Position numbers and translations under genes: made by a program
The notes under the pieces: generated by a model
Told to the model about the DNA's origin: nothing
The model's database searches: none
The model's input: only the letters and a program-made list of their open reading frames with translations
Shown: positions 39,221 through 41,137 of the stretch, piece by piece
Layout of the letters: each line of letters begins with the position of its first letter
Numbering within the stretch: the first letter of the stretch is position 1
Assembly (NCBI RefSeq): GCF_030384885.1
Contig: NZ_CP128613.1
Source of the DNA: Escherichia coli
GTDB lineage: Bacteria; Pseudomonadota; Gammaproteobacteria; Enterobacterales; Enterobacteriaceae
DNA length: 64,000 nt
Reading direction: 5' to 3' (one strand)

Positions 39221-39321
39221 CTCCTGAGCAGGCGGCACTATGCCGCTTTCATAGGAGTTCTGAATGCTGGTGCTTTCTGTATGGCATAACCATGCCTCTA
39301 ACGGTTAAGTGCTTGCAGCAC
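39221..39321. repeat. ~100-bp direct repeat, copy A (3' end of the antitoxin gene through the RBS of the 70-aa ORF)
   Basis: ctcctgagcaggcggcactatgccgctttcataggagttctgaatgctggtgctttctgtatggcataaccatgcc...; about 93% identical to copy B at 41038-41137. Confidence 0.8.
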
Positions 39322-39588
39322 ATGTTGCGGATCATTGGCAATCGCTCGCAGCAAAGCCTTTGCAGGCCCGGTCGGTGAACGCCGCCCCTGCTCCCAGTTA
39401 CGCAACGTGTCTACGCTTACGGAAATAAGATCGGCAAATTTAGATTGTGACAACCCTGAAGCACGGCGTATTTCTTTGATTTTCATAGCATCAACTTCAA
39501 AAGTCCGTGAAGGCTGTCGCGTTCCTTCAATAATTTCATTCATCTGGGCCATGCTGTGAGTCAACCGCTCAAAAAGTGCCTTATCCAT
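39298..39588 (-). CDS. HigA-2-like antitoxin, XRE-type HTH protein (96 aa)
   Basis: HTH region IKEIRRASGLSQSKFADLISVSVDTLRNWEQGRRSP; directly downstream of the toxin-like ORF. Confidence 0.8.
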   Translation of the reverse strand: MDKALFERLTHSMAQMNEIIEGTRQPSRTFEVDAMKIKEIRRASGLSQSKFADLISVSVDTLRNWEQGRRSPTGPAKALLRAIANDPQHVLQALNR

Positions 39589-39810
39589 TTACCACCTCGT
39601 ATTTAACAACCGGAGCATTGCTTTTTCCTGGGGAGACAGATCATCTTTAATACCCTTACGATAAATAAGCAGTAATCTGATCTCATAATGTTTAACCTGA
39701 TGAAAGTAAATAACCCTGACACCAGCACGTTTCCCCTTTTCTCCTGAGACCCATCGAACCTTTCTTAACCCACCAGTTTCAGGTATTACCTCACCGTAGT
39801 CAGGATTCAA
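39589..39810 (-). CDS. HigB-2/RelE-family toxin-like ORF; conserved N-terminal region continues upstream to about 39900 with no canonical start
   Basis: TTG-initiated ORF (..GGLRKVRWVSGEKGKRAGVRVIYF..); the same frame upstream encodes ILFIETEIFPEDVQKLLNDDEFSRFQFFLAL before reaching a stop, with no ATG/GTG/TTG. Confidence 0.6.
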   Translation of the reverse strand: MNPDYGEVIPETGGLRKVRWVSGEKGKRAGVRVIYFHQVKHYEIRLLLIYRKGIKDDLSPQEKAMLRLLNTRW

Positions 39811-40011
39811 GGCCAGGAAAAACTGAAAACGACTGAATTCATCGTCATTCAGCAGTTTTTGAACATCTTCTGGGAAAATTTCCGTTTCGATGAAGAGTAT
39901 AACTGTACGCCATTGGCTTAGAGTAACAATCCTTTTTGTACGTCATTGACGTACCCCTGAAACCACTAGCTTACTGATAGTGCTACAGCAAAACCACGTC
40001 TCTGCCGAGTT

Positions 40012-40050
40012 TGTCTTTACATTTGCGAGGCGCTTTCCAGATTTTCCACG
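40012..40050. promoter_or_regulatory. conserved promoter/operator-like element, copy 3 (between the toxin gene and the esterase gene)
   Basis: ctttacatttgcgaggcgctttccagatt, sharing the core TTTGCGAGGCG(T/C)TTTCCAGA with copies 1 and 2. Confidence 0.5.
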
Positions 40051-40086
40051 CCCGTGAATTTCCCTGTATCCATCCAGTAAAAACGG

Positions 40087-41037
40087 GTGTATAAAACTGT
40101 ACATTCATACAGCAAAATGAGTTCTACTATGGCACTGGAAAAAGGAATTGCAGAGTTAGTCGAAGAGTTTATCGCTGCGGGTCGCCCCTCATCGCGTCAA
40201 CAAAGTATTGCGCAGCGCAGGGAGGGCTATATCGCCAGCGCTGTCCTTGCGGGTGAGACAGAAACGCGGGTAGATATTCAGACTATCGAACTTGAAGCGA
40301 TGACCTTACGAATAGTGTCGCCGCTGAATGCCCCTACATTACTCCCGACGATAATTTATTACTACGGTGGCTGTTTTGTTAGCGGCGGGTTCGCAACTCA
40401 CGACAACCAGCTGCGCCAGTTAGCCTATTACGGGCAATGTCGGGTTATTGCCGTCCAGTATCGGCTGGCACCGGAACATACTTTCCCCGCCGCCCATGAT
40501 GATGCGCAGCGAGGTGCAGAATTAGTCTGGCAACACGCCGAACGACTCGGCGTTGATAAACAACGGATAACTCTCGCCGGTGACAGTGCAGGTGGGCATC
40601 TGGCGCTGGTAACTGCTTTGCGATTAAAGCGTGCTGGCGAGTGGCAACCAGCACAACTCATCTTAATTTATCCTATGCTTGATGCGACTGCGCATTTCGA
40701 AAGCTACATACGCAATGGTCACGATTACATCATCACACGCGACACTTTACTGAGCGGCTTTGAGATGTACCTGCCAGGCATTGAACGCAGGCATCCTGAA
40801 GCCAGCCCTCTTTGGCGCGATGATTTCAATGGCTTGCCGCCTGTACATATCATTACCGCTGAATACGACCCACTTTGCGATGAAGGTGAAGCGTTGTATC
40901 ACCGCATGACAGAGCAAGGAGTGCAATGCACCTGCCAACGCTACCTTGGCGTTATCCACGGATTTTTTCAGTTAGGTGGTATCAGTGAGGCTGCGCGATC
41001 GGCGCTACGGGATGTGGCCTGGAGAGCGGGAAGGTAA
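40087..41037 (+). CDS. alpha/beta-hydrolase, HSL-family carboxylesterase/lipase
   Basis: Nucleophile elbow GDSAGG, oxyanion-hole region YYGGCF, C-terminal VIHGF; start uncertain (in-frame ATGs at 40087, 40117 and 40129). Confidence 0.8.
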   Translation: MYKTVHSYSKMSSTMALEKGIAELVEEFIAAGRPSSRQQSIAQRREGYIASAVLAGETETRVDIQTIELEAMTLRIVSPLNAPTLLPTIIYYYGGCFVSGGFATHDNQLRQLAYYGQCRVIAVQYRLAPEHTFPAAHDDAQRGAELVWQHAERLGVDKQRITLAGDSAGGHLALVTALRLKRAGEWQPAQLILIYPMLDATAHFESYIRNGHDYIITRDTLLSGFEMYLPGIERRHPEASPLWRDDFNGLPPVHIITAEYDPLCDEGEALYHRMTEQGVQCTCQRYLGVIHGFFQLGGISEAARSALRDVAWRAGR

Positions 41038-41137
41038 CTCCTGAGCAGGCGGCACTATGCCGCTTTCACAGGAGTTCTGAATGCTGGTGCTTTCTGTATG
41101 GCATAACCATGCCCCTCGCGGCTAAGTGCCTGCACAC
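41038..41137. repeat. ~100-bp direct repeat, copy B
   Basis: Begins right after the esterase stop codon; about 93% identical to copy A. Confidence 0.8.

Follow-up and report, generated by a model that had tools for sequence, protein, structure and literature searches.

Direct repeats at the fabY-fdhE locus of Escherichia coli as the probable boundary sequence of two joined alleles

The two direct repeats of about 100 bp that bracket a toxin-antitoxin pair and an esterase gene in the window (the whole stretch of 64,000 nucleotides of Escherichia coli DNA analysed here) probably represent the boundary that two old, alternative alleles of the fabY-fdhE locus have in common; most strains carry only one of the alleles, and in the window's lineage the two now lie in tandem. 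This composite form of the locus, type III below, was most likely born by joining the two alleles directly after the esterase stop codon, at the microhomology AACTCC. The repeat pair is an ordinary recombination scar, and its second copy (R_B) is a scar without a gene to serve. Current understanding is not overturned by these findings. They provide a worked example of a direct repeat of this size made without a mobile element, by the stitching of two alleles at a microhomology, and of a short decayed antitoxin 3′ end that serves as a record of allele-joining history. The features of the locus are compiled in Table 1.

Table 1. Features in and around the variable locus, in positions of the window.
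Feature	Position	Strand	Basis or description
92-aa ORF	38661..38939	-	purifying selection: 10 synonymous to 2 nonsynonymous changes against UTI89
70-aa ORF, downstream of R_A	39001..39213	-	Escherichia-only; weak coding signal
Repeat copy A (R_A)	39220..39323	.	read on the minus strand: end of nadS, spacer of ~72 nt with two small hairpins, Shine-Dalgarno (SD) sequence AGGAGT
nadS, NadS-family HTH antitoxin, HigA-2-like, 96 aa	39298..39588	-	NCBIfam NF041265, 60.7 bits (cutoff 60); PDB HigA-2, E 2e-8; RefSeq annotation
HigB-2-like toxin, 103 aa, directly upstream of nadS	39589..39900	-	PDB HigB-2 5JA8/5JA9, E ~1e-17; weak Pfam RelE PF06296
Esterase, alpha/beta-hydrolase, hormone-sensitive-lipase/Aes family, 302 aa	40129..41037	+	outgroup synteny; ancestral neighbour of fabY
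Novel joint of the composite allele, AACTCC/TGAGCAGG	41036..41049	.	chance P = 3.2e-6
Repeat copy B (R_B)	41037..41137	.	ortholog of the single R in type I genomes
Segment X, AT-rich and foreign, 34-42% GC	41138..43434	-	contains the 637-aa ORF (41206-43119)
fabY (yiiD)	43435..44376	-	conserved right anchor of the variable locus

A repeat search of the 64-kb window returned copies at 39220-39317 and 41037-41134 (98 nt ungapped, 94% identity, 1817 from start to start), which blastn extended to 39220-39321 and 41037-41137 (102 columns, 93.1% identity, one 1-nt gap). The copies are in direct orientation and share uninterrupted matches of 32 and 45 nt, and their 26-nt core occurs exactly twice in the window against 0.00 times expected from 100 shuffles. 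The sequence-only reading had described such repeats of about 100 bp and 93% identity, and these results match its coordinates and identity nearly exactly. Its boundaries are borne out as well. Copy A had been said to run from the last codons of the antitoxin gene to the ribosome-binding site of the 70-aa ORF: nadS ends with a minus-strand TAG at 39298-39300, so that this stop and the final ~7-8 codons (39298-39323) fall inside this copy, and its left end, ACTCCT at 39220-39225, is the complement of AGGAGT and lies 6 nt upstream of the ATG of the 70-aa ORF (39213-39211). Copy B, said to begin at the esterase stop codon, does so with A41037, the last base of TAA at 41035-41037, and because it abuts this codon it has no downstream ORF. 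The junction between the esterase and R_B also exists in 329 complete E. coli genomes, which excludes an assembly artefact as the source of the two-copy arrangement.

The repeat unit, R, occurs in at most two places per genome (three for a longer query spanning the esterase end) and at the fabY-fdhE locus only. It does not behave as a dispersed repeat of the MITE or REP kind, with many copies per genome: there are two copies in the window and no corresponding Rfam family, since a search of 36500-44000 at a permissive E-value gave no match at either repeat. Scans of 38500-41400 for promoter and terminator consensus sequences were negative. Neither phages nor true plasmids contained R, the apparent plasmid matches being mislabelled chromosomes, and among the GTDB species representatives an exact 20-nt pattern of the R core, which diverged copies would escape, was found in E. 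coli only. The other match to this pattern was a 445-bp contaminant contig labelled Micromonospora.

The genes between the repeats include a HigB-2 homolog and an HTH antitoxin in contiguous, toxin-first order, as would be expected of a putative HigB-2/HigA-2-like module. Pfam, NCBIfam and PADLOC returned nothing for the 70-aa, 92-aa, 179-aa and 637-aa proteins. Annotation at this locus is unreliable, as the 637-aa product of X has been labelled a 'transposase', for which we found no support, and it resembles a SopB-like phosphatase. The 70-aa ORF shows 4 synonymous to 5 nonsynonymous changes, is frameshifted in some strains and is destroyed in beta haplotypes (defined below); its supposedly diverged homologs all proved to be copies of this E. 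coli locus containing frameshift errors.

A survey of 5426 complete genomes, with the locus defined as fdhE-yiiF-yiiE...fabY, distinguished three types, which are also visible in annotated genomes. Type II, with the order fabY-esterase-higB2-like toxin-nadS-R, is present in ~2306 genomes, and type I (fabY-X-R) in ~732; in the latter, the esterase and toxin genes and most of nadS give way to X with its AT-rich 637-aa gene. Type III, fabY-X-R_B-esterase-toxin-nadS-R_A, includes the window and accounts for 329. Counted by junction, R-nadS was found in 2635 genomes and the tail of R joined to X in 1061. The K-12 locus is a further deletion of type I. The fabY-fdhE locus has at least four structural forms among E. 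coli strains. The left flank carries a 391-bp deletion (beta) in all type I genomes and is of the alpha form in the scorable type III loci (the window, its near-identical L001, L009 and L011); in a further type III locus, L010, it is disrupted by IS1. The combination of alpha flank, R and X occurred in 0 of the 5426 genomes. The five type III loci whose junctions were compared are all identical at them. Type II was considered as a deletion product of type III and rejected, because the type II spacer, with its hairpin AAAAGGTTTTCAGATTGAAAACCTTTT, is absent from type III, the window included.

Comparison with other genera establishes which of these arrangements is the older. In Salmonella, Citrobacter and Kluyvera the order is fabY-esterase-toxin-nadS-fdhE, with 85-88% identical NadS proteins of 95-96 aa. 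As synteny is held in all three, the esterase and toxin-antitoxin block is ancestral. This overturns the earlier proposal that a segment carrying the esterase had been inserted into an ancestral toxin-antitoxin-small-ORF operon; the foreign piece is X. Contrary to the intuitive reading, the old residents are the esterase and toxin-antitoxin genes, and the newcomer is the AT-rich 637-aa gene. Sampling of other Escherichia species consisted of one metagenomic lineage, about 7% diverged (fabY 93.6% and fdhE 92.8% identical), in which fabY is followed by X, a nadS remnant that is longer than in E. coli, at 42 nt, and part of the R core, with no esterase and no toxin-antitoxin pair. Since X and the nadS remnant occur there without these genes, type I is an old state that did not arise from type III. 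Nothing about the fabY-fdhE locus was found in the literature on NadS or on yiiE/yiiF.

The origin of R_B can be read from its end. Its final ~23 nt (41115-41137) are collinear with the end of the nadS coding sequence (QALSR-E in copy B, QALNR-stop in nadS), the stop having changed from TAG to GAG at 41115-41117 alongside a 1-nt deletion. C-termini of this kind are conserved among the NadS proteins of other genera, and the direction of change was therefore from nadS to relic. A match further upstream in E. coli copy B, GCCAATG, was not a significant extension of the relic (396 of 2000 shuffles). The sequence-only reading had taken copy B for the relic of a second antitoxin 3′ end. The relic is real, but its source is the type I allele and not a second operon disrupted by the esterase; it need not derive from a second toxin-antitoxin copy on the same chromosome. 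At all diagnostic positions R_B has the bases of type I copies (the tail CCCCTCGCGGCTAAGxGCCTGCA-CAC, a C in TTTCACAGG and a TTCGC loop), and the bases of R_A agree with those of type II copies. One feature of the relic needs an extra assumption: it is ~20% diverged from nadS, whereas the adjoining R core is 92-99% identical between alleles, which calls for an old allele whose shared part was homogenised by recombination while the part adjoining X stayed linked to X. In the window, the R_B core is closer to its own R_A than other R_B copies are, and this hints at later gene conversion and blurs the signal.

At the joint itself, the type II sequence after the esterase stop (AACTCCGGACCAGG) and the start of R in type I (AACTCCTGAGCAGG) share a perfect 6-nt match, AACTCC, and 12 of 14 positions overall. 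Type III lacks the 62-nt spacer that separates the esterase from fabY in type II, and the two alleles have homologous sequence both in fabY and in the yiiE-side flank. We infer the order of events from these present-day structures. Its starting point, which is observed, is the ancestral fabY-esterase-higB2-like toxin-nadS; in Escherichia the R core forms the spacer behind nadS, and beyond it lie the 70-aa and 92-aa ORFs, yiiE and yiiF. In another lineage, the foreign segment X would then have taken the place of everything from the fabY-esterase spacer through the esterase and toxin to nadS, of which the last ~26 nt remained; the presumed product, type I, is seen today as fabY-X-[nadS relic + R core], R being the nadS remnant with the downstream spacer. 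Finally, DNA of one allele would have entered a cell with the other. One crossover would have been homologous, in fabY or the yiiE-side flank, and the other illegitimate, at AACTCC(T/G)GA(G/C)CAGG, a sequence that type II happens to have just past the esterase stop and type I where R begins. Such homology-facilitated illegitimate recombination would yield fabY-X-R_B-esterase-toxin-nadS-R_A, with loss of the native 62-nt terminator spacer between esterase and fabY.

The same joint could have been used differently, and closest to the earlier idea of a second antitoxin is a history in which a unit of R, nadS, toxin and esterase was duplicated by unequal exchange at AACTCC, X then replaced the second copy except for the nadS tail, and type I arose later by deletion between R_A and R_B. 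That order of events would account for the nadS relic in copy B, and a deletion between the R copies of type III would yield the exact type I structure. It is nonetheless unlikely, as blastn of the region against itself and other alleles showed only R to be duplicated, and 41138-43434, past the second repeat, contains no remnant of another toxin or esterase gene. Moreover, R_B has the bases of the beta haplotype, unlike the neighbouring alpha R_A, no genome of the survey has a type I locus with an alpha flank, and the diverged Escherichia lineage has X and the nadS remnant without the esterase and toxin-antitoxin pair; the same breakpoint between X and nadS would also have to predate type I everywhere. 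A discrete 1.8-kb module bracketed by direct repeats, with a quasi-palindrome within R, might also suggest that R is a recombination site or small mobile element (att-like, a MITE or a cassette boundary) at which the toxin-antitoxin and esterase cassette inserts site-specifically. This reading is largely refuted and scarcely credible: the module is ancestral and syntenic in genera without R, one repeat end is nadS coding sequence, and 38000-43500 contains no recombinase and no adjacent integrase or transposase, the label on X being unsupported. The confinement of R to one locus, at most twice per genome, its absence from true plasmids and phages, and that of its core from other GTDB species representatives (by exact 20-nt match only) likewise speak against it.

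The R core might instead be a functional RNA, acting in copy A as a hairpin that sequesters the SD sequence of the 70-aa ORF and in copy B, where the esterase and X genes converge, as a terminator or 3′ stabiliser. In the predicted minus-strand fold of both copies, CUCCU and AGGAG form a stem that encloses a GCGGCA-UAG-UGCCGC hairpin, and the core is better conserved between haplotypes (92-99%) than its flanks (80-88%). Yet the folding z-scores are only -1.8 and -2.1, no Rfam family or promoter or terminator consensus was matched, and the variation in R, solely within-species, includes no compensatory changes. The ORF to be regulated shows little constraint and is destroyed in beta haplotypes, the element itself is confined to Escherichia, and the origin of the duplication is left unexplained, all of which makes an RNA function improbable. 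Still more remote is the combined idea of a selected hairpin (SD-sequestering leader in copy A, 3′-end element in copy B) with the repeat pair as a low-frequency recombination switch; if true, such a switch would allow type III strains to lose the HigB-2/NadS pair together with the esterase and so pass to a type I-like state. The joining of two alleles, the reading that we prefer, leaves the repeat pair as a potential substrate for homologous deletion of this 1.8-kb module. The sequence-only reading had suggested as much; the deletion is plausible in principle, but its predicted product, with the window's left flank, is the combination that the survey lacks. Selection might act against cells that lose the toxin-antitoxin module.

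Several known systems resemble parts of this locus. Like HigB-2/HigA-2 of Vibrio cholerae, the module in the window has a HigB-2 homolog as its toxin (E ~1e-17), an XRE-HTH antitoxin similar to HigA-2, and a toxin gene upstream of and abutting the antitoxin gene; unlike the V. cholerae superintegron module, it is chromosomal, syntenic across Enterobacteriaceae and has a NadS-family antitoxin, and it is putative, being recognised from sequence. Two direct repeats of ~100 bp at a distance of 1.8 kb are also the usual setting of direct-repeat-mediated deletion, RecA-dependent or by slipped strands, but no deletion product with an alpha flank was present in the 5426 genomes. [quoted passage not shown] Type III resembles it in its single microhomology joint, in the loss of recipient DNA (the 62-nt spacer) on insertion and in the long homology, in fabY or the yiiE-side flank, that would anchor the opposite side; in contrast to the experimental cases, we infer the event from natural genomes. 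The inserted DNA was an alternative allele of the same locus, and the shared boundary sequence was therefore duplicated. Finally, the locus recalls the alternative-allele ('replacement') segments at E. coli hotspots, where non-homologous cassettes, here the esterase with the toxin-antitoxin pair or X, share the same conserved flanks and have further deletion derivatives such as K-12. It differs from the usual hotspots in its third, composite form, in which both cassettes stand in tandem and the direct repeats were thereby created.

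The repeat R is real, and a recombination scar in a composite allele, formed by an ordinary mechanism, explains it well. A repeat scan pairs 39220-39317 with 41037-41134 (98 nt, ungapped, 94% identical, spacing 1817), blastn pairs 39220-39321 with 41037-41137 (93.1%, a single 1-nt gap), and a 26-nt core has exactly two occurrences in the window, with none expected. On the minus strand, copy A (R_A) takes in the final ~8 codons of the antitoxin gene, nadS, with their stop, and extends to an AGGAGT 6 nt upstream of the ATG of a 70-aa ORF; the first base of copy B (R_B) is the final base of the esterase stop codon. 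The coordinates, identity and placement that a sequence-only reading had assigned to both copies are thus accurate by direct reading, repeat scan and blastn. In copy B of strain elppa5 (L011; equivalent to window 41037-41075), the left arm of a quasi-palindrome reads GTGAAA, not GAGCAG, which yields a perfect 18-bp inverted repeat, ACTCCTGTGAAAGCGGCA-CTA-TGCCGCTTTCACAGGAGT; this mutation looks like a hairpin-templated (template-switch) event.

The window is nearly identical to E. coli strain 2013C-4282 and spans the locus fdoGHI-fdhE-yiiF-yiiE … fabY(yiiD)-dtd. From yiiE to fabY, the order is 179-aa ORF, 92-aa ORF, 70-aa ORF, R_A, nadS, 103-aa toxin, esterase, R_B and 637-aa ORF, the last in a segment, X, with a GC content of 34-42% against 50-55% in its neighbours. 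The 92-aa ORF differs from that of UTI89 by 10 synonymous to 2 nonsynonymous changes, and is probably a real Escherichia-restricted gene. Members of a 45-nt repeat family (TTTTTGCGAGGCGTTTTCCAGA…) sit upstream of yiiF, yiiE and, in weaker form (62%), the higB2-like toxin gene; judged from sequence, they may represent a promoter/operator motif common to small RHH and toxin-antitoxin genes. Between fdhE and yiiF, a match to the sRNA ES036 (CssrF; 45.8 bits, above the gathering score) adjoins a partial match to the REP-like naRNA4.

Features of the fabY-fdhE locus in the window and, where an L number is given, in other loci compared with it
Feature	Position	Strand	Description
ES036 and naRNA4 sites	37001-37043 and 37047-37083	minus and plus	Rfam matches
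45-nt repeat family	37455-37499, 37895-37939, 40015-40059
179-aa ORF	between yiiE and 92-aa ORF	plus
92-aa ORF	38661-38939	minus	protein ends YYY, without family assignment
nadS	3' end within R_A		NadS/HigA-2-like HTH antitoxin
103-aa toxin	next to nadS		homologous to Vibrio HigB-2 (PDB 5JA8/5JA9, E about 1e-17)
Esterase	between toxin and R_B	plus	Aes/hormone-sensitive-lipase family
637-aa ORF (604 aa from Met34)	41206-43119	minus	in AT-rich segment X
K-12 fabY-yiiE intergenic region	L008 (K-12 MG1655) 6440-7291		keeps ~55 codons of the 637-aa gene and the 92-aa ORF 3' end
Salmonella/Citrobacter genes between fabY and esterase	L024/L027 2702-3456, L026 3255-3497		HigB_toxin (PF09907) + HTH, or ParD
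VapC gene of one E. coli strain	L013 1444-2060		adjoins yiiF-like CopG gene

In annotated regions of other complete genomes the locus takes discrete forms, which were counted with junction-spanning queries against 5426 complete genomes; the counts are approximate, because IS-disrupted loci blur the numbers. Type III, the form of the window, has both cassettes and two copies of R, and its esterase/R_B junction occurs in 329 genomes. Type II consists of R-nadS-toxin-esterase, a 62-nt spacer with a bidirectional terminator hairpin, and fabY (UTI89, O104:H4); the R-nadS junction is found in 2635 genomes, which puts this type at about 2306. Type I, R-X-fabY without toxin-antitoxin pair or esterase (O157:H7, O145:H28, 042), comes to about 732, since the R tail with X is present in 1061 genomes, O157:H7 and O145:H28 among them. 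The remaining forms (about 2060) are K-12-like or lack R. K-12 derives from type I by deletion, as shown by the fusion, in its locus, of the 92-aa ORF's 3' part (window ~38696) with the ~55 initial codons of the 637-aa gene (window 42956). The window lacks the esterase-fabY spacer of type II, and type II was therefore rejected as a deletion product of type III.

NadS homologs of 95-96 aa, 85-88% identical, occur in Salmonella, Citrobacter, Kluyvera, Enterobacter and other genera, with C-termini alike in type (…HVIQALSR, …NVIQALRY). In Salmonella, Citrobacter and Kluyvera, the order is fabY, an optional extra toxin-antitoxin pair, esterase, 103-aa toxin and nadS, which is followed by ~45 nt of hairpin and then directly by convergent fdhE. 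By this synteny and the homologs, esterase-toxin-nadS beside fabY is the ancestral arrangement, and the 3' end of nadS is native. Between nadS and fdhE, an Escherichia-specific insertion comprises the R core, the 70-aa and 92-aa ORFs, yiiE and yiiF. The proposal that the esterase had been inserted into a toxin-antitoxin operon is consequently not borne out. The locus also gathers further toxin-antitoxin modules (see table), in the light of which yiiF and yiiE look like orphan antitoxin-type RHH genes.

Nineteen copies of R, from the window and 13 fetched loci of all three types, were aligned. Every X-linked copy (type I R and type III R_B) ends …GCCCCTCGCGGCTAAG(T/C)GCCTGCA-CACATC, and all nadS-linked copies end …GCCTCTAACGGTTAAGTGCTTGCAGCACAT. 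Translated in the frame of nadS, the X-linked tail gives (V)-x-QALSR-E; the stop TAG has become GAG and one base is lost. This tail is a decayed copy of the final codons of nadS. Independent support comes from a divergent Escherichia lineage (metagenomic contigs; identity to the window 93.6% for fabY, 92.8% for fdhE and 77% for X), in which a longer nadS remnant and part of the R core come after fabY-X. The remnant (42 nt, 90% identical to window 39331-39372) encodes …PAKALLRAIVND…, and neither esterase nor toxin-antitoxin pair was found in the locus on these contigs. The suspicion that copy B is a relic of an antitoxin 3' end was thus correct. It follows that X replaced the spacer, esterase, toxin and most of nadS, and that R survives beside X because the breakpoint fell inside nadS. 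The relic is ~20% diverged from nadS, whereas the adjacent R core is 92-99% identical between alleles, a contrast tentatively attributed to the age of the X allele and to homologous exchange that would continue in the shared part while sparing the stretch tightly linked to X. The R_B core of the window is closer to its own R_A than other R_B copies are, which suggests some gene conversion.

The 637-aa protein of X belongs to a family in which the motif GCKSAKDRT (CX5R) is invariant; about 15 distant members, 21-37% identical, are related to it over their full length. The protein matches no Pfam or PDB sequence, and no literature on it was found. Its AlphaFold model is confident (pLDDT 83.9) and matches Salmonella SopB (8JZL, E 4e-7), Legionella SidF (4JZA), and phosphoinositide phosphatases of IpgD/SAC type (IpgD/SopB-annotated and SAC-domain phosphatases), at low TM-scores of 0.3-0.4. 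PGAP cuts the ORF into two, and the RefSeq/UniProt names of its fragments, 'transposase' or 'IS600 ORF2', look wrong.

To the left of R, the flank occurs in two old haplotypes. In alpha, the 92-aa and 70-aa ORFs are intact; in beta (O157, O145, O104:H4, K-12), both are destroyed by loss of 391 bp between 9-nt direct repeats, ACGACGGCG (window 38760-38768, 39151-39159), which looks like a microhomology deletion. Type II is found with both haplotypes, type I genomes are all beta, and the scorable type III loci (the window, its near-identical L001, L009 and L011) are alpha; the fifth, L010, was left out of flank scoring owing to an IS1 there. Type III R_B cores carry beta-type bases (C in TTTCACAGG, a TTCGC loop and the CAG-CGGCACT indel) beside an alpha R_A. 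The perfect blocks of 32 and 45 nt within the repeats could support the 1.8-kb deletion envisaged by the sequence-only reading, but no alpha-flank derivative was seen: a synthetic query for the R_A x R_B product (alpha flank, R and X) is covered by none of the 5426 genomes, and type I genomes all begin matching it at the beta breakpoint. One may speculate that toxin-antitoxin addiction opposes deletion of the module.

The junction sequences (type II …GGTAACTCCGGACCAGG…, type I …AAAACTCCTGAGCAGG…, type III …GGTAACTCCTGAGCAGG…) have AACTCC perfectly in common and match at 12 of 14 positions (P = 3.2e-6 for that register); type III junctions are identical in all five loci examined. From these structures we infer, as the simplest history, four events and their order. 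Alpha-II would have given beta-II, and beta-II would have become beta-I as X replaced the ancestral cassette. Further deletion would have turned beta-I into the K-12 form. Finally, joining of an alpha-II allele to R-X of a beta-I allele at the AACTCC microhomology, with a homologous crossover in the flank, would have given type III.

The same joint would serve a tandem duplication of R-nadS-toxin-esterase in which X then replaced the second copy. Against this count the beta-type bases of R_B, the lack of alpha-type I genomes, the antiquity of the allele pairing X with the remnant, and the absence by blastn of toxin or esterase remnants beyond R_B. Reading R as an att site, or the toxin-antitoxin/esterase module as a mobile cassette, fails because the supposed cassette is ancestral and syntenic, a recombinase is absent, and R is confined to one locus and not on true plasmids or phages; an exact 20-nt R pattern, which diverged copies would escape, has no match in representative genomes of other species. 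A 445-bp contig of a Micromonospora craterilacus assembly (L016, NZ_POTY01000570.1, coverage 0.76), which matches the R region of E. coli at 91-94% identity, almost certainly stems from E. coli contamination.

A functional RNA element is weakly suggested by a fold of R that sequesters the Shine-Dalgarno sequence: the folding z is about -2, no Rfam match, covariation, or terminator or promoter consensus was found, and the 70-aa ORF on which the fold would act is under little constraint (4 synonymous to 5 nonsynonymous changes, plus frameshifts) and has no homologs outside the fabY-fdhE locus.

R_B is best read as the scar left by the joining of two alleles, which deprived the type III esterase of its native terminator spacer and placed it against the R_B hairpin. 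Such joining would be a case of homology-facilitated illegitimate recombination, which is documented in E. coli with microhomologies of 3-10 bp (PMC3240628).
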